Positions 1-57,924 of a stretch of DNA of 64,000 bases are shown one piece after another. A program made the position numbers and the translations under genes. Numbering within the stretch: the stretch's first letter is position 1; each line of letters begins with the position of its first letter. This DNA comes from a virus, in IMG/VR virus record IMGVR_UViG_3300045988_176431, positions 1 through 64,000 of that record. One strand, given 5' to 3'. The notes under the pieces were generated by a model, which ran no database searches, was not told the origin of the DNA, and saw only the letters and a program-made list of their open reading frames with translations.

Positions 1-470
1 TTACTATCCATAAAGAAGTTCTTCGTTTTTTCAGCAGCATTTTTGACACCATTTACGAATGTTTTACCCATATCCATTGCTTTGTCTCTAACACTAGTTC
101 CAAAGTTTTTAAGGGCATTCCATCCTTTCTTAATACCACCAGTTAAACCATTCCATGCTTTACTAGCAAGATTCTTAATACCAGATTTTTTAACTTTCTC
201 TTTCTTTACAAGTTCACCTGCTTTAATTCTTGCTAATAATTCTTTTTGTGATATATCTTGTTTCTTTAATCTTTCACCATTACCATTAAAACATTCACCT
301 TTAGCGTTATAATAACTACCATCAGTTGCTGCAAAAACAGTTTCCTTACTATCCATAAAGAAGTTCTTAACAGCATTTCCTGCTTTCTTAGCACCATTTA
401 CGAATGTTTTACCCATATCCATTGCTTTGTCTCTAACATTAGTTCCAAAGTTTTTAAGGGCATTCCAGCC
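1..470 (-). repeat. in-frame direct repeat (period 345 nt = 115 codons) in the C-terminal part of the giant protein
   Basis: About 1..125 and 346..470 are near-identical (ttactatccataaagaagttctt ... accatttacgaatgttttacccatatccattgctttgtctctaaca.tagttccaaagtttttaagggcattcca). Both encode WNALKNFGT.VRDKAMDMGKTFVNG...KNFFMDSK. Confidence 0.8.
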
Positions 471-3400
471 AGCTTTTGCTGCACCACCAACAAGTTCTTT
501 ACCTTTATTAATAGCACCTCCAACAAGTTTTTTAGCACCACCAATAAGCCCACCAGAACTAACATCTTTCATCTTTGATGTGTCAATAGCATCTTCATGA
601 ACAAAGCCTAAATCTTTACCATTTTTGCTTTTTACTTGCCATGTACCATCATCATTCTTTGTGTAAGTATTTCCTTTATCATCCTGATATGCTTTATTAC
701 CAACTAAAGCATTTTTTCCTCGATGATATAACCATCCTGCACCTTTTGAAATGGCACCACCTACTTTATCAGAGATACCACCATTTACTCTTGTATTATA
801 AGTATCGAAGTCTTCTTTATCAATTTTATATTTATTAGTTTTTACACCTTCTTTAAAATCTTTATAACTTAGATCTTTACTGATAATCCCAGCCTTTTTC
901 TGTGTTTCATATTGAGCTTTTATTGTTTTATCTTGATCTTTTTCAAAAACTTTTACGAATTTCTTTTGGTTTACTCTCAATTTCTCATAAGATTTACCAC
1001 CATCATTTTTAAAGAAATTATACATAGCACCTAAGATTGTATCTCTTAAGTTTATTGGTTCAAAGAAATCAAGAATAACATCGATTACTGCTCCAATGGT
1101 TGTACCACAACAAAGTCCCCATGCAGCACCAATTAACCTCATAGTCCAGTCAGTATCTTCTTTTGCTACTTTAAATAACTTTGATGCACATGTCGCACCA
1201 TCAATAGCACCACCAAGTGCAAAAACAACTTCACTAAGTCCGGCACTTGCTCCAGCTAAAGCTCCATGTTCTCCAAAAACTTTTGCTAACTTACCACTAA
1301 TCTTAGGAAATTTTTTCTTCAACATTTCGATTATTTGTTTTGGTCCGCATTTACTAAAAAGCTGTTTAATTTTACCTGGTTCTTTTCCAGATTTTTCTGT
1401 AAGTTTTTTAATCAAGTTACTAAAAAATTCTTCGACCATTCCAGCAATTTTTTTAAAGAAACCACCAGAAGCTTTATTATCAGTGGCTTTTTTAGAAAGA
1501 CTCTTTCCTGCATCTTTCATTTTATTAACTATTTTTTTTGCACCTTCGGTTGCTTTACCTTTTACTTCTGTTTTTACAGTATTTTTAAAACTATCCACTT
1601 CGTTTCTTATATTAGTTACGGCTTTTCCTGGCTTTGAATTTTTCACTTTATTTCGTAAAGAATTCTCAGCAGTATCTAATGTATTTCGGACTTTCTGTAC
1701 CTTTTTACCAGCTTTAGATTCAGAAAGAGTTTTCTTTATATTCTTTTTCTTATCACTTTTCCATTTTTTAAATCCTTTTTCATTTTTATTTAATTTAAAA
1801 TCATCATTACCAGGAACAAAAAAATCATCAGCATGTTCTTTAGTCCATCTCTTATTAGATACTCCTTTCATGTTATCCCAATCTTCTTGAGAGATAACTT
1901 TTCGTCCATCTTTAAGAGAATAAGTTTTTGTTTTTTTATCATATACTAAATGATTTTTCTTTGCATCTCTAGTAAATTTTTCATAATCACTAGGTTTTCC
2001 ATGAATTATACGTTTAATTGCTCTACCTGGTGCTTTAATTACTTTCTCAGCACCACGCATTACTTTTTTAGCTTTTTTAGTAGTCTTTGTAAAGCTCTTA
2101 TTATATCTATTATGATAATTTACAATCGTCTTACCTATAAGATTAGTTCGTTCATGAGTACTTCCTGTAGTAGAACCGTCTTCATTTAATCCTAAAGGAT
2201 TTGTTACAATGCCTTTAACATTATCTTTTATTGCTTCAGGTATACTCTTTCCATCTTTTTGAGCACCTATACCATCATTGGTTCCGGATTGATCGATTGT
2301 ATTACCGATAGTCATTCCAAGACCTTTAGCAACACTCTCTAAAATATTTTTCAAAGTTTCCCAAATTCCTGGGAATTTAGCCATAAGTACTAATAAACCA
2401 GCAGTAATAAGACCTTTTTTACTAAAGATATTATCCCAACTTAAGAAATGACTTTTACTCTGTTCATTTCCTTCACCGATTTTATCTTTAATAGCACCAA
2501 ATAACCCTTTATACTCTTTATCTTTTTCTCCCTCTTTCTCAGCTTCTTTTTTCTTTTGCTGAGATTCGAAAGAACCTTCGTTTTTAGCATTTGCTAAATC
2601 AGCAGCATTATCAGCATCAATAATTGCTTCTTTTTTAGCAGAACTATCTTTGATATCATCAACATCTGATGTATCTGCGTTTTCTTTAATTAAATTACCC
2701 TCTTCATCATAGTCTGCATCTGAATTTGCTTTTGTTTTCATAACAGCAATATCATCTGCTTCACTATCATCTTCAGAAGAATTATTTGGACCTCCAACAA
2801 ATGGAATTCCCATTCCGAAGTTTTTCAATCTTCCTTTAATACCGTTAATTCCACCACCAAAACTTGGTGTAGCACCATTAACAGAAGGACCATCGGTTCC
2901 TTTTAATTTACTTATTACACTACTAGCAATACCTTGTACAAATACTTTGATACCATTGCCTTTTTGTGACAGAATTTTACCTTTTGCTTTTGGTGTAAAG
3001 ATTTCTGCGGCACTTGGATCAGATCCACCATCACCAACGAGATATGATTCACCATCATTTACATCTCCACCATTTGCTCTGGCTTTTCCTTTTCTATTAA
3101 AGAAACCTTTTACCTTACCAATTGCATTTTTTGACTTTTCTTTGAAATTGGCAAATGTTTCAGAAGCCTTTCCTTTAATATAATTAATGAAACCACCGGC
3201 TTCTTCAAATTTTTGCTTTAATTCATCAATCTTAGAAATTGCTCCACTTTCTTCATCTTCATTCTCATTATCTTTATCTTCACTATCTTTTTTTTCTTTC
3301 TCATTTTTCTCAGCATCTGAATCACTTTTACCTGATTGATTCATCTTACCTACACCAAAGGCTGGTTTATCACCAGTGAAAAATGATACAAGTCTTTCAA

Positions 3401-6400
3401 GTAAAGATGCAGAACGAGTCTGTTGTTGGAGCTGACGACCCTGAATATCAAGGTCAGAAGATTTTGCATTCAGCATATCATCATCAGATAACTTCTGAAC
3501 AGTTTCTGCTGCTTTTTGTTTCATTTCAGCAGCAACTTGTTTTGGATCTTTTTCAAATCCAATTTCACCAGCACTATTCTTTTTGAATTTATGCTTTAAT
3601 GCTTTATTTTTTTCAATAGCAGCATTCATTGTCTTCTCATCAAAGTATTTTACATCATATCCGAGAGTTTTTGCTGCTAATGCTCTATTCTTATCCATCG
3701 CTTTTCTATCACGTTGGACTTTTTTGTTTTCTTGTTTTTCTTTCATATAGGCAATATCAGCATCTGTTAATGCTGTACCAACACCACCAAAACCAAGTTT
3801 TTTCTTCAGGTTATTTAACCCTTCTTTTCCTTTAATTCTACCACCACTAATAGTATCAATTAATTTATAACCAGTATTGGTTACTTTTTCTTTTGCTTTA
3901 TCTTTTCCCCAACTAAAACCAGCTTTTACAAGATTTACTAACCTACCAAAAGTTTTTGAATATGCCTTTTTGATAGTCTTTTTCGTAAATTCTTTGACAT
4001 TATCAACAGCTTCACCAATCTTTTTAGCAGCTTTTCTAAATGGACTTGTAACCCAACGAGTAGCAACTTCTAAGATTTTTACAGGGAAAGTAATCATTGA
4101 TTTTGCGGATTTATAAGCTAAACTTGTAACACCACTAACTACTTTTTTAAGAGGATCAAAGACAATCTTCTTTGCCAAGTTTGTAATTGGTGACATAATT
4201 TTCTTAAGTAATCCACCTGCTTTTTTTGTTCCTTCTTTAATTTTCTCTGTTAATCCTTTAAAGGCACTAACCAAAGGCTTAACCATAACAGATAATTTTG
4301 CAAATACTTTATTTTTCATTGTATTTTTAAAATCATCAGCAATACCTAAAAATTTGGTTTTCATAGGAGCGAAAACTTCAACATGCATCCAGTTTCCAAC
4401 TTTTCCTACCATACCTTCTTTTATTTTTTCACCGTTTTCATCTTTCTCACCGAATAACCATTTATTGAATTTTTTACCAGAAGATTTTACACCAAGTGCT
4501 AATCCTGCAAGAGCACCAACAATTGGACCTCCAGCCATAAATCCTAATAAACCACCAGTTCCGGCACCAATAACACCCATTCCCATTCGTTTCTTAAAGT
4601 CTTTTGTATCTTCATCATCTTTATTACCGAATGCTTTTTTAATGTTATTGCTTAATTTTGATTTGAATCCTTCAATCCCTTTTTCTTCATTACCATACAT
4701 GAAGTCTTTGAACATCTGAGATTCTTTCATGAATCCAACAGCACTACCAAGAATTGCACCAGCGAATGGACCACCAACTAAGGCACCCATAAATCCACCA
4801 GAAGAACCTAATATAAGATTCTTAGCCATTCCAAGAGCAGCACCACCGATTACACTCTTTTTCAGTTTAGGATCTTTAAACATCTCTTGTGTTTTCTTAG
4901 ATACTAAACCGCCAATTCGACTCTTATTACCATTCTCATCTTCTACTTCAGGTCCAAATAAATAATCTTTGAATTTATCAGAGCGAGCAACTAAACTAGT
5001 ACCCATTCCAAGAACAATACCAGTCATTGGTCCACCAACGATTGCTCCTAATAAACCACCAGAAAGTAAACTAGTTCCAAGACCAGCAAGTGCACCAACA
5101 CCAAGTGTAGGAATTGCATCCATTGCTTTTTTCTTGAAATCTTCTACCATATCTTTTTCTGATTTTTCAGGATCATCAGAACCAAATAAAGTAGTTTTCC
5201 AACCTTGTAATCCTAACTTCAGAGATTCAACAAGTCCACCAATTACACCTGTTTTTTTCTCTGCTCCGTCACCGTCTTTATCTTTATCACCAAAAAGACG
5301 ATATCTCACACTTTCACCAAGTTCTTTGAATACAGAAGAAACTTTTCCTAATACAGAATTCTCTTTGTCACCTTTGTGAACATTTCCATCTGCATCTATC
5401 CAATCAGTTCCTTTAATCTTGGAACCCATTTCATGCCAAATATCTTTTGACTTATTCTGAATAGCAGAGAACATACCTCCTTGTTTATAACCATTTTCAT
5501 CTTTTTTACCAAAGATACTCTCTTTTAAAGGATTTAAGAAATTATCCTTAATAGAACCCCAGAAAGTTTTCATACTATCTGAAAAGATAGCAGCAAATTC
5601 TTTCATTGCACCTTTGCTATCACCATTCATAATAGCAAACATACCATTCTTCGTATGAGTACCAACATTTGCTATCATACCTGGAATTGTAGAAGCGTCT
5701 GCCATTTTTACAGCAGATTTTCTTCTTCCTGACATCGTTTCATTATCAGGAATTATATCTTGACTTTGTAAACCTTTCTTAGCAAGAGTTTTAGCATTAC
5801 CTTTTGTACGATGTTTCATTTGATACTTATCTCTTGCTTTTTGCTCTTTTTTCTCTCTTTCTTGTCGCTCTTTACGCTTTCTTTGAGAATTTTTATTTCC
5901 TGTTTCTACATCAACTAATTCCCAAGGATTTGTATCTTCTGTAATACCAGCAGCAAGAAGATTTCTTGTATCATAGTTTTCATTAAGATCTTCAATTGCA
6001 TTATTAAATGCAACTTTTGCATCTATCTGAGCTTTTGCAGCATGTTGTACACCAACTTGATTCTTTTTCATCAAATCGATAGTATTTAATAAGATATTTA
6101 AAATCTTCTCATCATGTTTATTATTTACATCAATATATTCTGCTATCTTATTAACATCTGAATTCTTATCATGGATATCCATTTTATCTGGAGTAAATGC
6201 TTTTTCATATCGAGTAAGTCCTTGGAAAAACTGACTCATCATTTTTTCATAAGTTTTTGCATCTTTTCCAACTAATTCAGAACCTCCTGCTCTGAGTGCT
6301 TCACCAAATTCAGAACGATTAAAAGCATCCTCGATACCTTCTTTTATCTGATTTGCAATATCACTTCGAACATCTTTTACTTTTGTATATCTTCCAGATT

Positions 6401-7664
6401 CAATATCAAATACTTCACCATTATCTTTACTCTTATTTGTATCAATCTTGAAATGTTCAGCAATATCTTTTAAATAAGAGCTCATCTCACGAAGATGTTT
6501 TGGTATAATTTCCACAATTGAGTTTCTGGTTACTCCATCAAAGACGGCAGCATCTTTAGAAACTTTTCCCGATAAGTCGAATCCTTTTTTTGCATCGACT
6601 TTAATTCCAAATACATTTCCTATTAATCTCTGAAGAGCACCTTTCATACCAGCTTCTTCAGATTTTCTCCAATCTCCTAACTTAGCAAGCATTGTTGGCA
6701 TAAATCCTGTAAAGGCATCTTCCATTCCTTTTACAGTATTTGTAACTAAATTTGGAACCATAGCAGATAATATCATCTTAGTGGCTCCTCCAACAGGGTT
6801 TGCTAACATCATATCGAGCATACTGTCATCTGTTAACATATCAAGTGTACTACCAGCACCACTATTTTTGTAAACAGATTTTATTTGTTTCTTTACATAT
6901 TCTTTGTATTTTCCTGCATCAATACCTCTCGTTCCATTAAATACATCAGGACCATTACTTCTTTTTCCACGATCATCATCTTCAGTTGTTTTTGCATAAC
7001 GATCAAAAACAGCCATTGCAGACTCATAGAACTTTAATGTATTTTCTTGTTGGAATTGTACTAATGCGGTAATACCATTATTAATATTTGACAAATGCAT
7101 ATTGGTTTCTTTTGCAATCTCTTGTGATTGCATCATACCAGCACTTGCAATTGATATCATTGCGTCTACACTTGCTTTTTGTGCTTTTATATTTGATTCT
7201 GCACTCGTTGCAATTGCATCTGCTATAACAGCACTTCCATTACTTGATGAACGATTTCCATCATCAATATAATTAAAAGTAACAGTAGCATCTTCATTAG
7301 CATCTTCAAAATCAGAAAAATCAAAATCACCAAACGATTCTTCCATTGTTTCTGTAAGACGATCACTATTATATATTTTTCCAGTTTTTATATCATTCAA
7401 ACTGTTTGTAAATGCTTTTTTTACACTTTTAATCGCTGAATTGTTATTAAGTGCCTTTGCTACTTGTGAAACATTATTTCCTTTTGTTGCATCTTTAATA
7501 CTTCGAATTGCTCCTGCAGTTCCTTTTCCTAATTCACTTAGGTTAGGAGCAATCTCTTTGAAATTATCAACTGATGCAGCACCAATTGATTTCATCACAT
7601 TATTTAGCCATTTTGTGCTAACTTTTGATTTACCACGTGTATTTGTGGCAGGTTTTTGTGGCAA
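1..7664 (-). CDS. giant tape-measure-like virion protein (>2550 aa; 3' end runs off the left edge of the window)
   Basis: By-eye translation gave an open minus-strand frame from TTG 7664 (AAGGAGGG 8 nt upstream, in-frame TAA just before) to position 1. Helical N-terminus and three Gly-zipper hydrophobic blocks (e.g. GVGALAGLGTSLLSGGLLGAIVGGPMTGIVLGMG). YLVGDGGSDPSAAEIFTP resembles the VGExGPE motif of tape measure proteins. The + strand ORFs listed in 43..7668 are low-complexity antisense shadows. Confidence 0.6.
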   Translation of the reverse strand, partial: MPQKPATNTRGKSKVSTKWLNNVMKSIGAASVDNFKEIAPNLSELGKGTAGAIRSIKDATKGNNVSQVAKALNNNSAIKSVKKAFTNSLNDIKTGKIYNSDRLTETMEESFGDFDFSDFEDANEDATVTFNYIDDGNRSSSNGSAVIADAIATSAESNIKAQKASVDAMISIASAGMMQSQEIAKETNMHLSNINNGITALVQFQQENTLKFYESAMAVFDRYAKTTEDDDRGKRSNGPDVFNGTRGIDAGKYKEYVKKQIKSVYKNSGAGSTLDMLTDDSMLDMMLANPVGGATKMILSAMVPNLVTNTVKGMEDAFTGFMPTMLAKLGDWRKSEEAGMKGALQRLIGNVFGIKVDAKKGFDLSGKVSKDAAVFDGVTRNSIVEIIPKHLREMSSYLKDIAEHFKIDTNKSKDNGEVFDIESGRYTKVKDVRSDIANQIKEGIEDAFNRSEFGEALRAGGSELVGKDAKTYEKMMSQFFQGLTRYEKAFTPDKMDIHDKNSDVNKIAEYIDVNNKHDEKILNILLNTIDLMKKNQVGVQHAAKAQIDAKVAFNNAIEDLNENYDTRNLLAAGITEDTNPWELVDVETGNKNSQRKRKERQEREKKEQKARDKYQMKHRTKGNAKTLAKKGLQSQDIIPDNETMSGRRKSAVKMADASTIPGMIANVGTHTKNGMFAIMNGDSKGAMKEFAAIFSDSMKTFWGSIKDNFLNPLKESIFGKKDENGYKQGGMFSAIQNKSKDIWHEMGSKIKGTDWIDADGNVHKGDKENSVLGKVSSVFKELGESVRYRLFGDKDKDGDGAEKKTGVIGGLVESLKLGLQGWKTTLFGSDDPEKSEKDMVEDFKKKAMDAIPTLGVGALAGLGTSLLSGGLLGAIVGGPMTGIVLGMGTSLVARSDKFKDYLFGPEVEDENGNKSRIGGLVSKKTQEMFKDPKLKKSVIGGAALGMAKNLILGSSGGFMGALVGGPFAGAILGSAVGFMKESQMFKDFMYGNEEKGIEGFKSKLSNNIKKAFGNKDDEDTKDFKKRMGMGVIGAGTGGLLGFMAGGPIVGALAGLALGVKSSGKKFNKWLFGEKDENGEKIKEGMVGKVGNWMHVEVFAPMKTKFLGIADDFKNTMKNKVFAKLSVMVKPLVSAFKGLTEKIKEGTKKAGGLLKKIMSPITNLAKKIVFDPLKKVVSGVTSLAYKSAKSMITFPVKILEVATRWVTSPFRKAAKKIGEAVDNVKEFTKKTIKKAYSKTFGRLVNLVKAGFSWGKDKAKEKVTNTGYKLIDTISGGRIKGKEGLNNLKKKLGFGGVGTALTDADIAYMKEKQENKKVQRDRKAMDKNRALAAKTLGYDVKYFDEKTMNAAIEKNKALKHKFKKNSAGEIGFEKDPKQVAAEMKQKAAETVQKLSDDDMLNAKSSDLDIQGRQLQQQTRSASLLERLVSFFTGDKPAFGVGKMNQSGKSDSDAEKNEKEKKDSEDKDNENEDEESGAISKIDELKQKFEEAGGFINYIKGKASETFANFKEKSKNAIGKVKGFFNRKGKARANGGDVNDGESYLVGDGGSDPSAAEIFTPKAKGKILSQKGNGIKVFVQGIASSVISKLKGTDGPSVNGATPSFGGGINGIKGRLKNFGMGIPFVGGPNNSSEDDSEADDIAVMKTKANSDADYDEEGNLIKENADTSDVDDIKDSSAKKEAIIDADNAADLANAKNEGSFESQQKKKEAEKEGEKDKEYKGLFGAIKDKIGEGNEQSKSHFLSWDNIFSKKGLITAGLLVLMAKFPGIWETLKNILESVAKGLGMTIGNTIDQSGTNDGIGAQKDGKSIPEAIKDNVKGIVTNPLGLNEDGSTTGSTHERTNLIGKTIVNYHNRYNKSFTKTTKKAKKVMRGAEKVIKAPGRAIKRIIHGKPSDYEKFTRDAKKNHLVYDKKTKTYSLKDGRKVISQEDWDNMKGVSNKRWTKEHADDFFVPGNDDFKLNKNEKGFKKWKSDKKKNIKKTLSESKAGKKVQKVRNTLDTAENSLRNKVKNSKPGKAVTNIRNEVDSFKNTVKTEVKGKATEGAKKIVNKMKDAGKSLSKKATDNKASGGFFKKIAGMVEEFFSNLIKKLTEKSGKEPGKIKQLFSKCGPKQIIEMLKKKFPKISGKLAKVFGEHGALAGASAGLSEVVFALGGAIDGATCASKLFKVAKEDTDWTMRLIGAAWGLCCGTTIGAVIDVILDFFEPINLRDTILGAMYNFFKNDGGKSYEKLRVNQKKFVKVFEKDQDKTIKAQYETQKKAGIISKDLSYKDFKEGVKTNKYKIDKEDFDTYNTRVNGGISDKVGGAISKGAGWLYHRGKNALVGNKAYQDDKGNTYTKNDDGTWQVKSKNGKDLGFVHEDAIDTSKMKDVSSGGLIGGAKKLVGGAINKGKELVGGAAKAGWNALKNFGTNVRDKAMDMGKTFVNGAKKAGNAVKNFFMDSKETVFAATDGSYYNAKGECFNGNGERLKKQDISQKELLARIKAGELVKKEKVKKSGIKNLASKAWNGLTGGIKKGWNALKNFGTSVRDKAMDMGKTFVNGVKNAAEKTKNFFMDS

Positions 7665-7734
7665 TTAAATCACCCTCCTTTCATAATTATTTAAGTCCTT
7701 AATTCAATGTTTTTACTCAAAAAATCACAAAAGA

Positions 7735-7783
7735 GGGTAAAAAAATGAAGATAACCGATGTGACAAAAATCACATCGGTTATC
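7735..7783 (-). terminator. intrinsic terminator after the 7848..8408 gene
   Basis: 14-bp stem gataaccgatgtga/tcacatcggttatc (7750-7783), followed on the minus strand by ttcattttttt. Confidence 0.6.
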
Positions 7784-7847
7784 TTCTTCACACTTTGAGA
7801 GGAGCAAAGTTTTGAGTGAATGAAATATATCTAAATATAACTTATCA

Positions 7848-8408
7848 TCAAACTTTTTTACGTTTCTTCAAGTAATCCGGACATGGAGAACTTGCAACGA
7901 GCGATGTATACTCTTCATTGGTATACTCAAACTCACCAAGGTCTTTACCATCACGTGGATTCTTTGCATGAGAACGTTTTGTTTTCTTCGGGTTTTTCTT
8001 AAGGGAAACAGAACCTTTGAAATCTTCTCTTGGAATAAAATCAAATTTGTTTCCTGCACCCATGTATTCATAAATGGCAGTTACGATAAACTCATAAAAA
8101 CCATCTACATTATCAATTGTGAAAGATTCATCCATTACAACAGAAGATTCTTTCTTATCAACGCCTGCTTTTTCAAGAACTTTCTTCAAGAATTTTCTGA
8201 AGTTCTCATTTACCATTACTTCTTCATAATGGTCAACTACTCCAGCTTTTACAACTGGAACTTTAATACTGAAATCAGTATCATTCATCATTGCTTTCAG
8301 CAATTTGTTAAAATTCTTTTTTGAAAAACGATTATTAATTACTTTACCGTTTTTTCCTGTTTTTCCTTCCATTTCTTTTAATGTCTCTTTTACGCTCATC
8401 TTCTTCAT
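7848..8408 (-). CDS. HU/IHF-like (DNABII-type) DNA-binding protein with N-terminal extension (tentative)
   Basis: VDGFYEFIVTAIYEYMGAGNKFDF ... KRSHAKNPRDGKDLGEFEY aligns by eye with HU VDAVFDTITEALKKGDKVQL ... RTGRNPQTGEEIEI (helix 2 plus beta-arm). Confidence 0.45.
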   Translation of the reverse strand: MKKMSVKETLKEMEGKTGKNGKVINNRFSKKNFNKLLKAMMNDTDFSIKVPVVKAGVVDHYEEVMVNENFRKFLKKVLEKAGVDKKESSVVMDESFTIDNVDGFYEFIVTAIYEYMGAGNKFDFIPREDFKGSVSLKKNPKKTKRSHAKNPRDGKDLGEFEYTNEEYTSLVASSPCPDYLKKRKKV

Positions 8409-8951: not shown

Positions 8952-9194
8952 TCATTTCCGATTTCTCCAAGTAATCGTTCCTTTCGTCAAATCATATGGA
9001 GAAACAGAAACACATACAGTATCTCCAACAGTAAGAGTTACATTGTTTAAACGAATTTTTCCAGTTGGATGTGCTGTGATTTCTAATTCTTTTCCCTCTT
9101 CGTTTTCAACTTTTACTATGTACTTTCCGCCATTGATTTTTTTAGTAATTTTTCCTTCCAGTTCAATCAAATCTTGCCTACTCATTTTACTCAC
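8952..9194 (-). CDS. infA: translation initiation factor IF-1 homologue (S1-like OB fold)
   Basis: 80 aa. IELEGKI..VKVENEEG.ELEITAHPTGKIRLNNVTLTVGDTVCVSVSPYDLTKGTITWRNRK matches bacterial IF-1 ([53 protein letters not shown]) along its whole length. GAGGTGAG RBS. Confidence 0.85.
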   Translation of the reverse strand: MSKMSRQDLIELEGKITKKINGGKYIVKVENEEGKELEITAHPTGKIRLNNVTLTVGDTVCVSVSPYDLTKGTITWRNRK

Positions 9195-9266: not shown

Positions 9267-9713
9267 TTAATAATCAACTTCTCGTTGATACATTTCCAAA
9301 TCAACATAACGATTTTTTAATGTAGTTAATGATGGTGTCTCTTTTCTAATCTTTTTAATCTCTTCCTCCAAAATATCATAACATTCAGACATTTTCTCTA
9401 TATCTTTTTTACTATCACTGAATTCAATTGTTCGAATCAAAACATCTTTTGCATAATACAAATCATCAAGATAAGGTTCAATATCTAATTGCTTAATAAT
9501 TAAATACTTGGATTGAATATAGCTTCCTCCATAACGAATTAAATATAAATCTTCATAAAGATGTTTATATTTACTTACTTTCTTTTTTTTAATATGAAAA
9601 GGAAGGAGATGTTCGTTATTTGTATGAAAGTAATCTTCCATATATTTTTTGATTACTCGCTTCTCTTCATGAAAAGCAATTAAATCACCATTACTATCCA
9701 TCACTCCATACAT
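9267..9713 (-). CDS. hypothetical protein (possible distant relative of the YAxT-KK paralog family)
   Basis: 148-aa ORF. DLIAFHEEKRVIKKYMEDYF weakly resembles PLYAFTNDKKLKDLFKETR of the 12.9-15.8 kb family. Confidence 0.7.
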   Translation of the reverse strand: MYGVMDSNGDLIAFHEEKRVIKKYMEDYFHTNNEHLLPFHIKKKKVSKYKHLYEDLYLIRYGGSYIQSKYLIIKQLDIEPYLDDLYYAKDVLIRTIEFSDSKKDIEKMSECYDILEEEIKKIRKETPSLTTLKNRYVDLEMYQREVDY

Positions 9714-12134: not shown

Positions 12135-12599
12135 ATGAAATCAAATTTAATGAAACGAGTTGTAATTGGTATTAAATCTGGTGTAAAAAAAGTAGCAAAT
12201 GCAGTACAGAAACCATTTAAAGCAGTTGCAAGATTCTTCATTAATATTGATTGGGCACATGTTCAGGTCAGCACTTATGTAAGATACATTGTAATGATCC
12301 TTACAATCGTTAATACAATTCTTACAAAGTTTGATTTGAACCCAATTAGTTTTAGTGAAACCGAGATATACAATATTACATCAGATTTGATTACAGTGAT
12401 TATCCTTATTATTAACACTTATAAAGATAATCCAACTTCAAAAGAATCGATTACTTGTACAGAATTACAAAGAGCAATGAAGTCAAGTAGTCATTTGGAA
12501 GAGATTAAAGCAAAACTTCAAGAGCAGTTAGATGAACTTGAAGGAAACGAAGTTTCAAAAGAATCTCAATTAGAAGATACTGAAGAAACCGAAGAGTAA
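12135..12599 (+). CDS. membrane protein, holin-like (tentative)
   Basis: 154 aa with two hydrophobic helices (YVRYIVMILTIVNTILT, ITSDLITVIILIINTY), then a DNPTSKES motif and an acidic coiled tail. This layout resembles Gram-positive phage holins. Confidence 0.35.
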   Translation: MKSNLMKRVVIGIKSGVKKVANAVQKPFKAVARFFINIDWAHVQVSTYVRYIVMILTIVNTILTKFDLNPISFSETEIYNITSDLITVIILIINTYKDNPTSKESITCTELQRAMKSSSHLEEIKAKLQEQLDELEGNEVSKESQLEDTEETEE

Positions 12600-12622
12600 A
12601 ACTATATGAAATAAAAAACAAA

Positions 12623-12666
12623 AGAATTAGAGATATGTGAAAAAGCATATCTCTAATTCTTTTTTA
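12623..12666 (+). terminator. intrinsic terminator
   Basis: 15-bp stem agaattagagatatg/catatctctaattct followed by ttttt. Confidence 0.75.
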
Positions 12667-12719
12667 TCTTGAAATTATATATCATTTATTTGAATAACTT
12701 AATGGAAAGGTGTGATATT

Positions 12720-12899
12720 ATGCATTATAGTGAAAGTGAATTTTTAGAAATCATTGAAAATACAGAATCTTTGATGAATTTCGTTTTTTATAAAAATAAA
12801 TCTAAGAAAAGTTTACAAAAATCATTAAAGAAATTAAAAAAGAAAGTAAAGACAGAAGGATTGAATTCTGTCCTTTATAAAGAAAAAGCGAGGTTATAA
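12720..12899 (+). CDS. hypothetical small protein
   Basis: ATG 12720 preceded by GGAAAGG. 59 aa with a K-rich C-terminus. Confidence 0.6.
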   Translation: MHYSESEFLEIIENTESLMNFVFYKNKSKKSLQKSLKKLKKKVKTEGLNSVLYKEKARL

Positions 12900-12900
12900 A

Positions 12901-13407
12901 ATGGAGTATAAATATTATCTCTATTATTTAAAAGAAAAGTATGCTATTTTATTTCATAGAGACCATCCCCTCTATGCCTATACTGATAATAAAAAAATAG
13001 CAAAAAGATTTGAAGAAACAAGGGATATGTCCTTGTTTAAAAAAGTAAAAGTAAAGATAGACCGTTTAGAAGTCAGAAGACTAGCTACTGAATTTAAAAA
13101 TGAATATCTTGGTAAGTTTGATTTATTATATAATAAAGAAGAAAGCGTTAAAATCCCAATTACAAAAAATGAAGAAGATACAATTAAAGGAATTGGTTAT
13201 AGCTTATTATATAAATATATTTACACAAATTCAGATATCAATCCTATGATATTTGATAAAAAATATGTCGATATTCTAAAAGATATCGACTACATATATT
13301 TTCATATGTACCAATTTTTTGATGTAGAGAATAAAAACATGAATATCAATTATTTAAAGATATTCATTAGTGAGTTCGGAAAAACTTTAAAAGGTGAGTT
13401 AAAATGA
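12901..13407 (+). CDS. paralog family member 1 (MK.Y..YL / LYAYT-D-KK / INPxIF-KY motifs)
   Basis: PLYAYTDNKKIAKRFEETRDM and INPMIFDKKYVDILKDIDY are shared with the following genes. Confidence 0.85.
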   Translation: MEYKYYLYYLKEKYAILFHRDHPLYAYTDNKKIAKRFEETRDMSLFKKVKVKIDRLEVRRLATEFKNEYLGKFDLLYNKEESVKIPITKNEEDTIKGIGYSLLYKYIYTNSDINPMIFDKKYVDILKDIDYIYFHMYQFFDVENKNMNINYLKIFISEFGKTLKGELK

Positions 13408-13964
13408 AACCATATTACTTGTGTTATTTATTGATAGATAACAAAACAAAAGACAAATATCCTTATGCAGTAGACGATTCAAATTTAATGTATGAAAATG
13501 AAAATTTCAAATATTATTTTTATGGGTGGACACCTTCAAAGAAAGTTATGAAGAAATTCAAAAAGACAAGAAGAAAAGATATTTTCCATTATCGGACAAT
13601 AATGGTATCAGATGAAGAATCTGAAATGTTTTATATTGATAATTATCTTTATCAGATTCATTGGAATTTATTAAATAATAATGAAATTTTAGTATATAAT
13701 GAATACCAATCAGTTTATGACTATTCTGATGAACTGATATATATTTTATTTGAAAATATGAATTATTTTCGTTCCCATATATTTTCTAATAAAAGTAAAA
13801 AGATATTAGATGCAATTGGTTACTTTTTACCTATTGATGAACTAGGTATTGCAGTATTGCCTATTCATCTTTTTGTCGTTGCATTTGGTTTTATGATTAA
13901 TGAGAAATTTATAGAAGATATTGATCTTAATACAGATGAATTTGATGATTTACCATTTAAATAA
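13404..13964 (+). CDS. paralog family member 2 (most divergent)
   Basis: ATGA overlap with the previous gene. MKPYYLCYLL, TPSKKVMKKFKKTRRKD, HIFSNKSKKILDAIGY. Confidence 0.8.
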   Translation: MKPYYLCYLLIDNKTKDKYPYAVDDSNLMYENENFKYYFYGWTPSKKVMKKFKKTRRKDIFHYRTIMVSDEESEMFYIDNYLYQIHWNLLNNNEILVYNEYQSVYDYSDELIYILFENMNYFRSHIFSNKSKKILDAIGYFLPIDELGIAVLPIHLFVVAFGFMINEKFIEDIDLNTDEFDDLPFK

Positions 13965-13985
13965 GAAAGGATGTGTGAAAGTTTT

Positions 13986-14603
13986 ATGAAAATATATTTA
14001 GTTTATTTAAAACATGGTAGTCGGTTATCGAATCAATTGTTGCATCCTAGTGTATATTTTGATAAGCGATATACAAATTGGTTTCCATATGCTTATACAA
14101 AAGATATTAAAATGATAAAAGATTTTATGGAAATTCGTAAAGAAAAGTTTTTTAAAGTAAAAGAAATTCACATTGATAAGGATGAATTTGATATAATACA
14201 GAAAGAATTAACGAAAATTTTACACTATAGAATTTCGTTTAATAATACTTATTGTAGTATTCCGGTAACATTTAAAGAACTTGATTATATGGATTTTAAT
14301 TTTAGTGAAGAATTATATGAATATTTATCAAAGTTTGTTTATGTTAATCCTGAAATCTTTAATGATAAATATAAAAAAGAATTAGATAAGATTGGATATA
14401 TTTTTGATTATTATTCATTTAATGGTGATGAATCAGAAGTTGATTATATCAATTATAATGCTAGCTTTTTTCCGAGTAATTCATTAACTGATTTAGGAAA
14501 GGAATGTTCAGAACTATTTAAGTATCTTATTATATTTCGTGAAGTCATTGATAAAGATAAGATGTTAATAAAATTTATATCAGAAAGCAGGCGAAAAACA
14601 TGA
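13986..14603 (+). CDS. paralog family member 3
   Basis: MKIYLVYLK, FPYAYTKDIKMIKDFMEIRKE, VNPEIFNDKYKKELDKIGY. The start was chosen by family alignment; the ORF is open from 13971. Confidence 0.8.
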   Translation: MKIYLVYLKHGSRLSNQLLHPSVYFDKRYTNWFPYAYTKDIKMIKDFMEIRKEKFFKVKEIHIDKDEFDIIQKELTKILHYRISFNNTYCSIPVTFKELDYMDFNFSEELYEYLSKFVYVNPEIFNDKYKKELDKIGYIFDYYSFNGDESEVDYINYNASFFPSNSLTDLGKECSELFKYLIIFREVIDKDKMLIKFISESRRKT

Positions 14604-15187
14604 AAGTATGGTCCTTTTATTTAAAACCATGGAAAGTAAATTCAAGTTTACTCTTAGAATTTGAGGGAATGTTTGATGAGAAATTTATTGAACTTGATGG
14701 GATACGATGTCCTTTATATGCATTTACGAATGATAAGAAACTAAAAGACCTATTTAAAGAAACAAGAAATGAGAAAATATTATTTTGTATCAAATATGAT
14801 ATGAATGAAATTGAATATAATAAGTTTAAAGCAAAATTCATAGAATTGGAAATTAATAATTTTAGTTTCCGATGTCTAAATTCAAGAGGAGAAAAGACAT
14901 ATGCTTTTATACCAACGACATTTTTTGAATCTAATTCTTATGAAGATTCAAATGAATATGCTGATGATATTTTACTTGGCATTTCACCTGAAGAACAAAT
15001 TGCTATTGTGAAGATATTAAAATGCTTAACGAAAAAATATCAAAAAATTATTGGTGTAAATGATATTATCACAATCAATGATAATATTTATTCTATTATG
15101 AATGGAATACCAATCGAACTTGAAATTGATGGTCTTCATTATTTGATTAAGATATTTGGTGAATTATTTAAGAGTGAGGTAAGGTAA
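14600..15187 (+). CDS. paralog family member 4
   Basis: ATGA overlap. MKVWSFYLK, PLYAFTNDKKLKDLFKETRNE. Confidence 0.8.
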   Translation: MKVWSFYLKPWKVNSSLLLEFEGMFDEKFIELDGIRCPLYAFTNDKKLKDLFKETRNEKILFCIKYDMNEIEYNKFKAKFIELEINNFSFRCLNSRGEKTYAFIPTTFFESNSYEDSNEYADDILLGISPEEQIAIVKILKCLTKKYQKIIGVNDIITINDNIYSIMNGIPIELEIDGLHYLIKIFGELFKSEVR

Positions 15188-15188
15188 T

Positions 15189-15764
15189 ATGAAAATATGG
15201 AGATTTTTTAGAGTACCAGAAGATGTTGAAAATTTTAGTAAAGATTTTGACATAAAAAATAAGTTTCCTCTTTATGCAATAACAAATAAAAAGAAATATA
15301 TGAAAATGTTTAAAGCATCAAGAGATATGGAAAATCGATATATCGTCAAATGTGATGATGTAGATTATGATGAGGGAACTCAATATATGCAGAATAATCG
15401 AGGACAAATTCTTGATTTTTATAAGTTACGAACTTATATGAATAAAGATATTAAAGAATATAAAGACTTTAAAGTCCTTATGACAGATTTTGAATATCGT
15501 TCTTTTGATGAAATTTCTGAAAGTTATGGTATCTTGATGGATTTAAATGCAATTAATCCTGATATTTTCAATCAAAAGATAGAAAAATTTTTATTAGACC
15601 TTGGATATGTTGACTTTTATTGTTTGAGGTCATCTGAGAATGTAAATGGAGTCTATATGGATAGTTACCCAAATTTAGACTTTAATCAGGATGAACTTGT
15701 CTTATTTATCAAGATATATCTTACAGATTTAACTGATATTACAAAGGCAATTAAATACGAATAA
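15189..15764 (+). CDS. paralog family member 5
   Basis: MKIWRFFRV, FPLYAITNKKKYMKMFKASRDM, INPDIFNQKIEKFLLDLGY. Confidence 0.85.
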   Translation: MKIWRFFRVPEDVENFSKDFDIKNKFPLYAITNKKKYMKMFKASRDMENRYIVKCDDVDYDEGTQYMQNNRGQILDFYKLRTYMNKDIKEYKDFKVLMTDFEYRSFDEISESYGILMDLNAINPDIFNQKIEKFLLDLGYVDFYCLRSSENVNGVYMDSYPNLDFNQDELVLFIKIYLTDLTDITKAIKYE

Positions 15765-15816: not shown

Positions 15817-16512
15817 ATGAGTATGAAAGATTTAATTGAAGTCGTTGTAATAAAAGATGTAGAGGAGATGGAGTATCATGTAAAATTAGAATCCGATCGA
15901 GATAAGGCAAAACTTGTTAAAAGAATGGAAAAGCATATTAGAAGTTCTATGGAATATCGTGACTATATAGCTTTTCTTAGAGATAATGTGGGAATGGATG
16001 CTTGTGCTTTCTTTAATAATATTAATAAAGATAGTTCAAAATCTATTCGTATTGAGATTCATCACGAACCACTTACCTTATATGATTATACAAGAGTCGT
16101 TCTTGAGAAATATATCAAAGAGGGATTACCAATTAATGATATGATGATTTCAGAAGAAGTTATGAAACTTCATTATCAAAATCAAGTTGGTTTGATTCCT
16201 CTTAGTAAAACTTTACATCTTATTATTCATGGAGATAATAGTGAAAAATTAGTAATCCCTGCTTATATGATTTTTGGTGATTACTCTAGTTTTATTGAAG
16301 AGTATGGAGATTACTTAGATGATGACGATATAATTTACGATAAGATTGAAAAAATGATTGAAAGGACAAAAGAGATTAAGAAAAATTCTTTTGAATTCCT
16401 TGAAAAGAAATATGAATATCTGAAAGTGGATGGTTTTGAGATTCCACAAAAAGTTGACTCAAATGGTGAAATGATAGAAGAAAATAAAGAAAGTGAGGAA
16501 GTTGCATGTTAA
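15817..16512 (+). CDS. hypothetical protein, paralog of 26957..27604 (IEIHHEP ... LSxxxHxxxH motif)
   Basis: EYRDYIAFLRDN..IRIEIHHEPLTLYDYTRVVLEKYIKEG...LSKTLHLIIH aligns with RYKKYISYLKDK..AIEMHHGPIFTLYDICDIVLNYYIKKG...LSPSVHEEVH. Confidence 0.8.
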   Translation: MSMKDLIEVVVIKDVEEMEYHVKLESDRDKAKLVKRMEKHIRSSMEYRDYIAFLRDNVGMDACAFFNNINKDSSKSIRIEIHHEPLTLYDYTRVVLEKYIKEGLPINDMMISEEVMKLHYQNQVGLIPLSKTLHLIIHGDNSEKLVIPAYMIFGDYSSFIEEYGDYLDDDDIIYDKIEKMIERTKEIKKNSFEFLEKKYEYLKVDGFEIPQKVDSNGEMIEENKESEEVAC

Positions 16513-17048
16513 GTAAAGAAGCAATTTTGGATGCAGTTGATAAAGGAGATATTGTGATTTCTCCTTTCGATGAAAAGAATTTAAATGGTATTTCTTATGA
16601 TATGGAATTATCAAATATACTGAAAGTATATAAACCAATGGTGAATGATCAAGTGAATATCATTGATACAAAAGATATTAAACCAGAAACTTATATGATT
16701 GATTTAAATGACTGGAAAGAAACAGGGATTGTGTTACAACCTAGATATTTATATCTTGGTAGTACAGTAGAATCTGTAAAATCTACAAAATATGTTCCAT
16801 GTATTTCTGGTCGTAGTACATATGCAAGATGCGGGATTCAAGTTCATCAGACTGCATTTTTTGCAAATCCTGGACATGATTTTCATTGGGTATTGGAAAT
16901 ATCAACAGTATTGCCTGTAATTATATATCCGGGAATGAAATTATCTCAGATGTATTTTGAACCAATTGAGGGTAATATGAAAGAATCTGATTTATATCAT
17001 GGACGATATGAAAAACATAATTTATCAGTTGGAAAAAGTGAATTGTAA
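16506..17048 (+). CDS. dcd: dCTP deaminase (dUTPase-superfamily)
   Basis: ISGRSTYARCGIQVHQTAFFANPGHDFHWVLEI matches the Dcd core GKSSlaRlGl.vH.TAg.idPGf.G..tLEl, including the catalytic Glu. Confidence 0.8.
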   Translation: MLSKEAILDAVDKGDIVISPFDEKNLNGISYDMELSNILKVYKPMVNDQVNIIDTKDIKPETYMIDLNDWKETGIVLQPRYLYLGSTVESVKSTKYVPCISGRSTYARCGIQVHQTAFFANPGHDFHWVLEISTVLPVIIYPGMKLSQMYFEPIEGNMKESDLYHGRYEKHNLSVGKSEL

Positions 17049-17051
17049 AAA

Positions 17052-17095
17052 AAGAAGAGAAGTAGAACTAATGCCTACTTCTCTTCTTATATCTT
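17052..17095 (+). terminator. intrinsic terminator
   Basis: 14-bp stem aagaagagaagtag/ctacttctcttctt followed by a T-rich tail. Confidence 0.65.
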
Positions 17096-32640: not shown

Positions 32641-32690
32641 ATTGTGGAGAACCAAGTATTTTGAAACTTGGTTCTCCACAATATTTATAT
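32641..32690 (+). terminator. strong intrinsic terminator
   Basis: 17-bp stem attgtggagaaccaagt/acttggttctccacaat. Confidence 0.8.
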
Positions 32691-32695
32691 ATTAT
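32684..32695 (+). promoter_or_regulatory. promoter-like motif TTTATATATTAT
   Basis: Immediately after the terminator and 74 nt upstream of the tubulin start. A small palindrome taaaatc..gatttta follows. Confidence 0.4.
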
Positions 32696-32768: not shown

Positions 32769-33917
32769 ATGTTAAATGTAGGTGTAATCGGAATCGGAAA
32801 CTGTGGTAATCAGGTAGCAAAATTGGCAATGAATGAATTGAAATGTGATGTATTAGCAATCAATTCTTCAAAGAATGATTTGAGTACTCTTGGAGAAGGA
32901 GTTCCAGTACTTTGTCTTGGTGATGAAAGAGGAGCTGGAAAGAACAGAACAGAAGCAAAATTATTCCTGAAGAAATCCATTATGGATATGATTCAGAAGG
33001 AAGAGTTTAAAAATTTCATGTCAGAGAAAGATGTGATTTTCATTGTAAGTAGCACAGGTGGTGGAACTGGTTCAGGAATGGCACCAGTATTATCTTCTAT
33101 TATCCGTAAATCATTTAGAGATGAAGAGGGTAAAGAAAAGACTGTCATTTTGATTGGCGTTCTTCCAAAACTCAGTGAAGCATATTCTACTCAGGTAAAT
33201 ACTTTAGAGTATATGGAAGAACTTCATAGTTCCATTGAGAATCCTACATACATGATGTATGATAATGAGAGACTCTCAAAAGAACCTACTCATGTTATGA
33301 TGCAGCGTATTAATCAGAGTATCATTGATGATATTCATGTACTTCAGGGTTATTACAACTTCTCTACGCCATTTAGTTCAATTGATGAGAAAGACATGAA
33401 GATGATTATTCAGACAACTGGAAGAATTTTCATTGCTTCTCTTACCGGATTGAAAGAGAAAGATGTTGATGAAAAATCAATCGAAGATCTTTTAGTTGAG
33501 AAGATTAAGAGAAATACTCATGCTGAGATTGACCGTAATAAGGTTGTAAACCGCACAGGAATTATTACAAATCTCTCAGAGAACTTGAATAATCAGTTTG
33601 ATACACATCTTCAGACAGTTCAGGAATTTGTTGGTTCTCCAATTGAAGAGTTTGAACATGTTGTTGTGAATTCAGAGAGAGCTGCAGAAAATAATGTATT
33701 CTTTATCATGTCTGGTCTCACATCTATGAATGATCGTGTAGAAAAGATTAAAGAAAGAATTGAAGAGATTCAGGAACTTCAGAAGACACAGGCAGAAGAG
33801 AATGCTCTTGATGGTGTTGATATTTCTGAGTTGAATCAGAAGAGAGAATATCGTGAATCTGCTTCCAGTGATGAGAAAGTAAATCTGGAAGGAATCTTTG
33901 CTGACTTTAATGTCTGA
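32769..33917 (+). CDS. tubulin/FtsZ-superfamily GTPase (PhuZ/TubZ-like phage tubulin)
   Basis: GIGNCGNQVA (G box), SSTGGGTGSGMAPV (tubulin signature GGGTGSG), YDNERL (T7-loop-like), short acidic/hydrophobic C-terminal tail. Confidence 0.8.
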   Translation: MLNVGVIGIGNCGNQVAKLAMNELKCDVLAINSSKNDLSTLGEGVPVLCLGDERGAGKNRTEAKLFLKKSIMDMIQKEEFKNFMSEKDVIFIVSSTGGGTGSGMAPVLSSIIRKSFRDEEGKEKTVILIGVLPKLSEAYSTQVNTLEYMEELHSSIENPTYMMYDNERLSKEPTHVMMQRINQSIIDDIHVLQGYYNFSTPFSSIDEKDMKMIIQTTGRIFIASLTGLKEKDVDEKSIEDLLVEKIKRNTHAEIDRNKVVNRTGIITNLSENLNNQFDTHLQTVQEFVGSPIEEFEHVVVNSERAAENNVFFIMSGLTSMNDRVEKIKERIEEIQELQKTQAEENALDGVDISELNQKREYRESASSDEKVNLEGIFADFNV

Positions 33918-35024: not shown

Positions 35025-35999
35025 ATGAAAAATGGAATTTATTCGATTTATATGGGAAGTAGTGAGAATATCGACAAAATTGAGAACACTACTTGTTTCT
35101 CATTAATCGAAAAAGAAAGCAAAAGACAAACCAAAGATGGTAAAAATCCAGTAATTCGTTTCTTATATAACGAATTGAATGGTCAGAGAATTAAGGTTCC
35201 ACCAAGATTCCAAATTACAAATATGGAAGAAGTACCGGATGTTGTAGAATACGATAATGAACACTTCACATCCATTCGTAAGTTGAAATTTGATTTCAAG
35301 GCAAATACAAAGGGAAATAATCGAAAAGGAAAGAGTGATATTTCAGTTTTATTAAACTTTAGTACACTTTCACCATTTCTTTCTCTCACTAACAAAGATG
35401 CAAGTTATTTGTATCTCACAATTGATACAAGCTCTCTTAGCTTGATTCAGTATTCGAAATCAAATATTATTGCAACCTTTAAGAATCCAAAAGCTAATAT
35501 TCTTGGATGCTTGATTGAACTCACAGATGAGGTTCCGCTTACATTCTATACAAGAGATAATTCAAAAAGAGGATTCTTTAAAGTTCATTGTTTCTCTTTA
35601 GATGAGGGTGAGTTGGTTTATACCGTTTCTTCTGATTTAGTTCCAGAAGAATTAAGGAGTATGAGAGCTCTTTGGAACCGTAAGAAGAAAACAAGGACAT
35701 TCCTGTATAACTTTAATGTTATGCCGGCAGCTCATTTGACTCATACAGAAACTGAAGAGAGACCGAATTCGATTGTTTGTAAAGCAAGAGAAGATTGTGA
35801 ATCAGATGATGAGTTCGTTAAAGAAGTAGAAGAGTCATTAAGAGCAGCAATTGGATATGTTCCAAAAGCAGTTGTTCTTGATAAAGACTTTACAGACATG
35901 ACATATGAAGATATGATTAAACTTCGTTTCACATATGTCTTTGGAACTAGAGAGAATGAAGATGGTTCCACTTATACGGTAACTTTAAAATCAAACTAA
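35025..35999 (+). CDS. hypothetical protein
   Basis: 324-aa ORF with GGGGGA RBS. Confidence 0.8.
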   Translation: MKNGIYSIYMGSSENIDKIENTTCFSLIEKESKRQTKDGKNPVIRFLYNELNGQRIKVPPRFQITNMEEVPDVVEYDNEHFTSIRKLKFDFKANTKGNNRKGKSDISVLLNFSTLSPFLSLTNKDASYLYLTIDTSSLSLIQYSKSNIIATFKNPKANILGCLIELTDEVPLTFYTRDNSKRGFFKVHCFSLDEGELVYTVSSDLVPEELRSMRALWNRKKKTRTFLYNFNVMPAAHLTHTETEERPNSIVCKAREDCESDDEFVKEVEESLRAAIGYVPKAVVLDKDFTDMTYEDMIKLRFTYVFGTRENEDGSTYTVTLKSN

Positions 36000-36066
36000 G
36001 TAATTAGTTATATATTATTTCAACGATATCAATATATTGATAATAAACAAAAAGGAGGACATAATT

Positions 36067-57836: not shown

Positions 57837-57924
57837 TGATATATACAGAAATACGATTTTCAATTCTAAATAACTGAGAAAACAAAGATATAACGTAATT
57901 GAAATATGAAAGTAGGTGAAAAAT

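Follow-up and report, generated by a model that had tools for sequence, protein, structure and literature searches.

Five tandem paralogues in a putative early operon and a dispersed sixth copy of a previously undescribed protein family in an uncultivated human-gut jumbo phage

Introduction

The genes described here are five tandem paralogues (p1 to p5, positions 12901-15764) and a dispersed sixth copy (p6) on a stretch of 64,000 nucleotides (nt) from a virus genome (IMG/VR record IMGVR_UViG_3300045988_176431, positions 1 to 64,000), which is called "the window" in its full length. The window is part of a ~249-kb uncultivated human-gut jumbo phage related to AR9, PBS1, and phiR1-37. Several described groups of phage proteins are comparable to this array. 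ModA and ModB of phage T4, and Alt, are ADP-ribosyltransferase paralogues whose presumed host targets at takeover differ. The T4 internal proteins IPI to IPIII and the inner-body paralogues of phiKZ (gp93/95/97 type) are tandem, diverged small proteins with an MK-aromatic start; their similarity lies mainly in a cleaved targeting peptide or in protease sites, and they are late virion proteins. Thymine is replaced by uracil in the DNA of Staphylococcus phage S6 and also in that of PBS1/AR9 and phiR1-37. Phages with such uracil-containing DNA (U-DNA) possess Ugi (PBS1/PBS2/AR9), p56, or SAUGI, early proteins of 56 to 112 amino acids (aa) that protect U-DNA; they are highly acidic DNA mimics and act noncatalytically, by binding a host enzyme. 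In the SPO1 host-takeover module and among the AR9 early genes, blocks of small early genes of Firmicutes myophages are located behind strong early promoters. The AR9 early genes are transcribed within 5 min and independently of protein synthesis, encode mostly hypothetical proteins, and use an experimentally mapped promoter of the virion RNA polymerase (RNAP), AAATATATATTAT-(6N)-G(+1), while Ugi is continuously expressed (PMC5312081). Bacillus phage G contains about 35 zinc-ribbon copies as the result of a lineage-specific expansion (PMC7824862).

The array of the window resembles ModA and ModB as a set of adjacent paralogous early-type genes for ~200-aa proteins in a large phage, but a genome contains far more copies of the family (at least six), whose conserved residues seem to be structural. 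The SPO1 and AR9 early blocks, unlike the array, are not one paralogous family. As in phage G, many copies of one small domain occur in a single jumbo phage genome; the fold of the window family is different, there are no zinc ligands, and the copies are not scattered but stand together in an array whose order and synteny are conserved throughout the clade. A location in one operon with a dCTP deaminase and a gene specific for U-DNA phages recalls the context of Ugi-type inhibitors, from which the proteins of the window differ by their length of 168 to 205 aa, their isoelectric points of 4.9 to 9.0, and their predicted fold. The family is outside all known families and, with a new fold, resembles a familiar class, the early accessory gene families that large phages carry in multiple copies.

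Results and Discussion

Six homologous genes of one family

The original prediction, made from the letters of the window, had described five translationally coupled tandem genes and a sixth copy near a helicase. The listing of open reading frames (ORFs) contains the five genes of 168 to 205 aa as claimed, all on the plus strand. The most compact copy is p1 (12901-13407, 168 aa). It overlaps by ATGA with p2 (13404-13964, 186 aa), the most diverged copy, which is followed by p3 (13986-14603, 205 aa, or 210 aa if translation starts at the alternative ATG at 13971). The next gene, p4 (14600-15187, 195 aa), overlaps p3 by ATGA and carries a 10-aa insertion within its INP.IF block. The last array position is occupied by p5 (15189-15764, 191 aa) of the MKIWRFF type, which is the best-conserved type among the relatives. 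Coupling by ATGA overlaps is consequently present at two of the four junctions, p1/p2 and p3/p4, whereas p4/p5 are separated by 1 nt and p2/p3 by 21 nt; a spacer of 1 nt also separates p1 from a preceding ORF of 59 aa. Shine-Dalgarno sequences precede the array gene starts, and the GC content of the region is about 25%. The dispersed paralogue p6 (45032-45577, plus strand, 181 aa counted from the MKLYVFYM start) is located 3' of a Dda/RecD-like helicase gene and two tiny ORFs. None of the six products has a transmembrane segment.

In a six-way alignment, the identity to p1 is 23 to 31%. Blocks of this alignment are the MK.Y/W start, (P)LYA.T..KK..K.F...R, INP.IF..K....L..(I/L).Y, and a C-terminal (D)EL..F, so that the three motif blocks seen originally are indeed conserved alignment columns. 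Because several pairwise BLASTP E-values were weak (0.35 to 3.8 for a notional database size of 1e8), homology was tested with profiles. In leave-one-out hidden Markov models (HMMs), each of the six proteins scored 16.1 to 57.2 bits against the other five, compared to a maximum of 10.2 bits for 500 composition-matched shuffles, which removes the concern that the similarity might be no better than that of shuffled sequences. An HMM built from 87 external proteins matched p1 to p6 over the full length with 31 to 155 bits (shuffle maximum, 12.3 bits). The profile scores of the copies were 10 to 60 standard deviations above those of composition-matched shuffles. These results confirm that the six genes are true homologues of one family, and both types of scores include p6, the copy predicted near the helicase. 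A similarity by compositional chance in an AT-rich genome, or ORFs that are not expressed genes, might have been suspected from the low GC content and the weak BLASTP values. This explanation is excluded by the profile scores, by 1,857 external clusters with the same protein length, by ratios of nonsynonymous to synonymous substitution rates (dN/dS) well below 1 at 20 to 50 substitutions per gene, by the ribosome-binding sites in front of the starts, and by a confident AlphaFold model.

No further member beyond p1 to p6 was found among the ORFs of the window by HMM and hhalign searches. The ORF 9267-9713, which had been considered a possible remote relative, is not one: its scores of −2.9 and 0.3 bits fell among those of shuffled sequences, the hhalign probability was 0.7%, and it is a conserved gene belonging to another family. 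The next-best candidate was the 177-aa ORF 48884-49417 (plus strand), which was also rejected with 7.9 bits against the 93-sequence A5 HMM, a model that includes p1 to p6, and an hhalign probability of 3.5%. Its last 50 residues are loosely similar to the T-x-x-E ... IF..K...L..L block of the family.

Size of the family and its absence from catalogues

An exhaustive HMMER search of 1.84 billion representatives yielded 1,857 clusters (counted at 50% identity) with E-values of up to 1e-3, and 1,090 of these with up to 1e-10. Among the best 150 of the 1,857 clusters, the members are 163 to 220 aa long and match in a single stretch in all cases but one. The signature of the family is MK-W/Y-R-F-Y ... 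PLYA-x-T ... T-x-x-E ... P-x-I-F ... D-E-L in a protein of 170 to 220 aa. One matching protein, P0019 from a 2-kb ENA contig (104 aa), consists of the C-terminal part of a p1 homologue joined to a fragment of a 3-methyladenine glycosylase (PF03352) and is probably an assembly or gene-calling chimera.

The family had not been recognized in the original prediction, and the profile searches agree with this, assigning no known family. Above the curated cutoffs of the Pfam families, p1 to p6 had no match; their best E-value in PHROGs was 0.017. When 48 diverse members were compared with Pfam, PHROGs, PADLOC, and NCBIfam, no family was matched by more than one member. Profiles run against the PDB sequences gave no matches (A2 profile) or a best E-value of 0.2 (A5 profile). 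A word-indexed search returned unnamed Logan and ENA proteins only, with none from NCBI or UniRef sources. Neither tblastn with p5 and the family consensus nor a DNA search with the locus matched any of 50,697 GenBank phage records, and pattern scans and tblastn with g242-like (see below) and p5-type queries found neither members nor hints of a host in 185,579 GTDB genomes. Literature searches for the family or the phage clade brought up no description. The family is previously undescribed, and its range so far is one clade of uncultivated jumbo phages. It represents well-defined viral "dark matter" that could receive a Pfam or PHROG entry, is a candidate target for structural genomics, and marks a diverse uncultivated clade of ~250-kb phages in human-gut and other metagenomes. 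The genomes of this clade share hallmark genes of U-DNA phages, a multisubunit RNAP, a tubulin, and group I introns.

Conservation of the array and its putative early operon

Synteny was evaluated in 18 IMG/VR relatives (contigs of 50 to 282 kb, ten of them of 250 to 282 kb). In 17 of the 18, three to five members are located immediately upstream of a gene homologous to AR9 g242 (the "g242-like" gene). Array and g242-like gene are direct neighbors in each of these 17, which are the relatives carrying the family, and also in a further relative, L001. The copy number across related phages, a comparison proposed with the original prediction, is thus three to five in all 17. Four independent, more distant metagenome lineages have the common order small ORF, array, g242-like gene, and dCTP deaminase gene, and at least two array copies are visible in every metagenome relative examined. 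Additional copies occur elsewhere or on the other strand in the relatives L014 to L018. In L001, the third and fourth array members are separated by the insertion of an unrelated 171-aa gene (7507-8022).

Among isolated phages, AR9, phiR1-37, LPJP1, and PALS_2 possess a g242 homologue but no array (for LPJP1 and PALS_2, by inspection). The genes near the g242 homologue in AR9 (g234-g239, g243, g246) and phiR1-37 (g277-g282) had no match to the family by hmmsearch and hhalign (probability of at most 1.3%), and the same searches found no remote match in the divergent relative L025.

The array may form a transcription unit with its neighbors. Upstream, a monocistronic gene for an SPP1-type holin homologue (12135-12599, plus strand), distant from any visible endolysin, lies between a divergent intergenic region and a strong hairpin of 18 to 19 bp with T-runs on both strands (12620-12663). 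A terminator scan found 5 such sites in the window, with 0.7 expected, and judged from its sequence this hairpin is an intrinsic bidirectional terminator, ending the holin gene and insulating the array operon. Between the terminator and the 59-aa ORF stands an early-promoter-like element, TTATATATCAT-(6N)-G (12675-12692, plus strand), which is akin to the mapped AR9 promoter, yet departs from the AR9 consensus. Its core TTATATATYAT occurs nine times in the window (10215, 12675, 17144, 23554, 32685, 36008, 36684, 47832, and 56670), several of the copies being followed by 6 nt and a G, with 0.97 copies expected and none of 100 shuffles reaching nine. Eight of the nine copies are intergenic, located between called ORFs; the ninth (36008-36018) is just 3' of the stop of ORF 35025-35999 and inside the predicted TTG start of ORF 36037. 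Of 13 relatives, 8 have the motif at a short distance upstream from the array; these relatives contain only zero to four plus-strand copies per locus (6.5 to 20 kb). It is probably the phage's own consensus for early promoters read by the virion RNAP, related to that of AR9. Its over-representation together with the likeness to the AR9 early promoter suggests that the array is expressed early. No early-promoter motif was found in front of p6, and a scan of the window for sigma-70 promoters revealed no enrichment.

The first gene of the putative operon is the 59-aa leader ORF (12720-12899, plus strand), the product of which combines an acidic helix at the N-terminus with a stretch rich in K (KK..KKLKKLKK). 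A K-rich ORF of 46 to 76 aa precedes the array in 8 of 10 relatives (L001, L010, L011, L012, L019, L021, L029, and L033); the pattern is conserved, while similarity between these leader ORFs was not detected by BLAST. Directly 3' of the array is the g242-like gene (15823-16512, plus strand; phrog_12252), homologous to AR9 g242 and phiR1-37 g278, the product of which contains an HHEP...H..IH motif. Homologues among isolates are found only in AR9/PBS1-type Bacillus phages, phiR1-37, S6-type Staphylococcus phages, and Listeria phage LPJP1, and every isolate having one shows two separate tblastn matching places per genome. The dCTP deaminase-like gene (16506-17048, plus strand) is the last gene of the unit. 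The operon probably ends at a 15-bp hairpin (17052-17088), which the scan called on the minus strand and which has a moderately T-rich tail on the plus strand.

Divergence and selection

The copies diverge about twice as fast as their neighbors, with identities of 26 to 39% compared to 46 to 70% for the same phage pairs. Between the window and L035, the closest mid-range relative, p4 and p5 are 32% and 39% identical, respectively, the g242-like protein 70%, the dCTP deaminase 57%, and other neighbors 46 to 69%. The best cross-phage matches of the copies are 20 to 36%, and those of the g242-like neighbor are 46 to 53%.

Comparison with strain-level relatives, with adequate counts of 20 to 50 substitutions per gene, resulted in dN/dS values of 0.05 to 0.07 for p1, 0.26 to 0.33 for p2, 0.42 to 0.47 for p3, 0.18 for p4, 0.09 to 0.10 for p5, and 0.12 for p6. 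The values were 0.01 for the g242-like gene, 0.03 for the dCTP deaminase gene, 0.02 for a 460-aa gene, and 0.01 for the helicase gene, so that the dN/dS of the copies is about ten times that of neighboring core genes. The copies are under purifying but relaxed selection. The amino acid changes between strains avoid the conserved core blocks. At the nucleotide level, p5 differs from L005 by 4.7% and p4 by 0.5%, and this is reversed in the comparison with L009; such a mosaic divergence indicates recombination between cocirculating strains.

Predicted structure and conserved residues

AlphaFold gave a very confident model of p1 (93 sequences; mean predicted local distance difference test [pLDDT], 94.3; predicted template modeling [TM] score, 0.84) and a model of p5 with lower values (16 sequences; 83 and 0.70, respectively). 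From the N-terminus, the p1 model contains beta1 (3-10), a short helix, beta2 (24-28), alpha1 (31-40), beta3 (46-53), and alpha2 (55-64), followed by beta4 (69-76), beta5 (82-88), the long alpha3 (89-107), alpha4 (120-128), alpha5 (131-140), and alpha6 (151-162). The predicted fold is an N-terminal five-stranded alpha/beta domain and a small helical domain. Foldseek searches of the PDB with the p5 and p1 models had best E-values of 0.84 and 1.0, respectively, with TM-scores of at most ~0.2, and the best E-value of the p5 model in BFVD was 0.063. Like the profiles, the modeled fold, although confidently predicted, leads to no known family in the PDB (p1 and p5 models) or BFVD (p5 model).

The sole invariant residue in 93 members is E91 (p1 numbering), equivalent to E102 in p5. 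Near-invariant are Y25, A26, T28, F37, R41, T88, L126, Y131, and D150; T88 is missing from p2. The 93 members have no conserved His, Cys, Lys, or Ser residue in common. In the p1 model, T88-x-x-E91 coincides exactly with the beginning of alpha3 and D150 with that of alpha6, and the near-invariant polar residues T28, R41, T88, E91, and D150 may be helix-capping-like (T-x-x-E, D-E-L). Near-invariant polar residues at helix ends and the lack of conserved His, Cys, Ser, and Lys point to a nonenzymatic role. The variable parts of p1 are the loop 11-23, the hairpin tip 77-81, alpha3, and the loop 141-150, with mean insertions of ~5 residues at the hairpin tip and ~9 in the loop 141-150. This map of entropy and insertions suggests variable specificity surfaces.

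Possible functions of the array

The reading we tentatively prefer, short of calling it probable, is that the family consists of early nonenzymatic binding proteins directed at several host targets, with a role in host takeover or counter-defence. In this case, p1 to p6 would be soluble cytoplasmic proteins of one family, and the five array copies would be made from one tight early operon composed of the promoter, the K-rich ORF, p1 to p5, the g242-like gene, and the dCTP deaminase gene, which the injected virion RNAP may transcribe. The conserved core would keep the scaffold, or one common contact, while the fast-changing surfaces, the long helix alpha3, the beta4-beta5 hairpin tip, and the loop before the last helix, would direct each paralogue to a target of its own. 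Acting jointly, the copies could neutralize several host proteins, or redirect them, as infection begins. A conserved early operon with old, fast-evolving paralogues would be a natural place for new host-takeover or anti-defence activities in phages of gut Firmicutes.

Several points weigh against early binding proteins with separate targets. The paralogues are old, being 22 to 31% identical within one genome, and p5 matches the last array gene in 7 of 9 phages and p1 the first in 4 of 9. This low identity and the matching of first and last positions indicate an old, ordered array and not a recent burst. Of the earlier description as "expanded, fast-diverging," the second part holds, as judged from identities and dN/dS, but a recent expansion does not. 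Several neighboring ORFs, the 384-aa, 422-aa, and 59-aa genes, diverge faster still. Overall selection is purifying, with dN/dS below 0.5 wherever the counts are adequate, and values near 1 (p1 and p3 compared with L005) are based on just 6 to 15 substitutions. The helix-capping argument is based on secondary structure and not on coordinates, and the phage is uncultivated. Finally, the age of the array, the position matching, and the two coupled junctions fit subunits of a complex equally well as independent effectors. The earlier proposal of host-takeover or counter-defence factors is plausible and gains from the faster divergence and the early-promoter look-alike, but purifying selection speaks against an outright arms race and the array is old; it is partly supported and unproven.

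The main rival is that the copies are subunits of one phage-specific hetero-oligomeric early assembly, possibly a scaffold or accessory complex with the g242-like protein in nucleotide or U-DNA metabolism, in which several old copies are kept because each holds a distinct position. A stable number of three to five copies in all 17 family-carrying IMG/VR relatives, the presence of the array in every metagenome relative examined, the tendency of first and last positions to match, and purifying selection would be expected for such subunits, and the tight spacing with two ATGA junctions favors coupled, near-equimolar synthesis. The constant linkage to the g242-like gene, and usually to the dCTP deaminase gene, also agrees with an assembly. 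Points against such an assembly are copy numbers that vary among three, four, and five, the unrelated gene interrupting the L001 array, dispersed copies (p6 by the helicase; L014 to L018), and dN/dS ratios ten times those of neighboring core genes. Moreover, the U-DNA phages AR9 and phiR1-37 and those of Staphylococcus and Listeria have a g242 homologue without the array, indicating that neither g242 function nor U-DNA as such depends on the array. We consider this assembly unlikely but worth keeping in mind; if it existed, it would be a new early phage machine. Another proposal starts from the shared early operon with a dUTP-supplying dCTP deaminase and a gene otherwise confined to U-DNA jumbo phages: the paralogues might be a battery of inhibitors with a new fold for a U-DNA lifestyle, each blocking another host enzyme such as uracil-DNA glycosylases, apurinic/apyrimidinic endonucleases, dUTPase, or enzymes of the thymidylate pathway. 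In function, such proteins would be analogous to Ugi and to the dUTPase inhibitor of PBS2, for which, as far as we know, no gene has been named. No Ugi homologue was seen in this phage clade, and the structures of Ugi, p56, and SAUGI in the PDB had no sequence or fold match to the family. The idea of DNA mimics was rejected since the charge of the proteins is not extreme. Drawn from the operon context, the proposal of U-DNA inhibitors seems quite improbable.

Enzymes with a new fold, each modifying a different macromolecule or small molecule of host or phage in the manner of T4 Alt, ModA, and ModB, are improbable as well. An invariant Glu (E91/E102) and near-invariant Thr, Arg, and Asp in 93 diverse members speak for enzymes, and the size of ~190 aa, the early context, and the presence of several paralogues are reminiscent of ModA and ModB. 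These residues are, however, located at helix termini in a capping-like manner, T88 is absent from p2, and His, Cys, Lys, and Ser are not conserved. No enzyme family was matched by sequence or fold. The conserved order is Y-A-x-T, F..R, T-x-x-E, and D-E-L, that is T...R...T-x-x-E...D and not the R / S-T-S / E-x-E of ADP-ribosyltransferases; there was no match to a Pfam family of these enzymes, no sequence or fold similarity to ModA, ModB, or Alt, and the Foldseek match to PARP15 had an E-value of 5 over 56 residues. Internal or ejected proteins packaged into the virion, with the shared N-terminal MK.Y..YL as a capsid-targeting signal, would account for an MK-aromatic motif that is superficially like the T4 capsid-targeting sequence, and tandem paralogous inner-body genes do occur in jumbo phages. 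The T4-type internal proteins would be expected to be similar only in a cleavable peptide of ~10 aa, but the homology of the window family is full-length and its N-terminus is a core beta-strand (pLDDT, 94 to 98), not a detachable peptide. An early-type promoter in front of the operon, a dCTP deaminase at its end, and the lack of similarity to annotated virion proteins in PHROGs and BFVD also speak against packaging, which is very improbable. Should the function of the early-type paralogues prove to be mundane, the family would be a solid annotation result and not the discovery of a mechanism.

The phage and other features of the window

The window matches the IMG/VR contig UViG_3300045988_176405 (249,343 bp) as a strain-level mosaic, with 100% identity for the g242-like protein and 90% for p6. 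Near-identical contigs come from human-gut metagenomes, for example, the Hadza and Nielsen-2014 samples. Strong ribosome-binding sites of the GGAGG type suggest a host among the Firmicutes. The Dda/RecD-like helicase (43540-44733) is nearest to those of AR9, PBS1, and Staphylococcus jumbo phages, with ~34% identity. The window also encodes both topoisomerase II subunits, a homologue of the multisubunit RNAP beta subunit, a primase, and a PhuZ/TubZ-like tubulin (32769-33917, plus strand; phrog_4733, E = 9e-14) with an early-promoter-like motif at 32685-32695. We know of no PhuZ-type tubulin in AR9-type phages, which makes that of the window unexpected.

Three group I introns share a common ...GATATAGTC... 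core. One (52810-53150, minus strand; 86 bits) is located between two ORFs of the large terminase, and another (61838-62216, plus strand; 61 bits) follows the RNAP beta ORF (57916-61875) and precedes ORF 62237-63157. The third (37652-37865, plus strand), just upstream of the topoisomerase II ORF at 37918, reached 29 bits, which is under the gathering threshold. Two 324-aa ORFs at 34032 and 35025 were considered as paralogues, and this was rejected despite their equal length. A homologue of the translation initiation factor IF1 is encoded at 8952-9194 (minus strand, 80 aa), with the orthologues of relatives carrying the PF01176 eIF-1a domain. At the left end, a frame without stop codons (3-7664, minus strand), which encodes a giant protein of 2,554 aa or more, runs off the window start; its orthologue on contig L032 was called at 3,429 aa.

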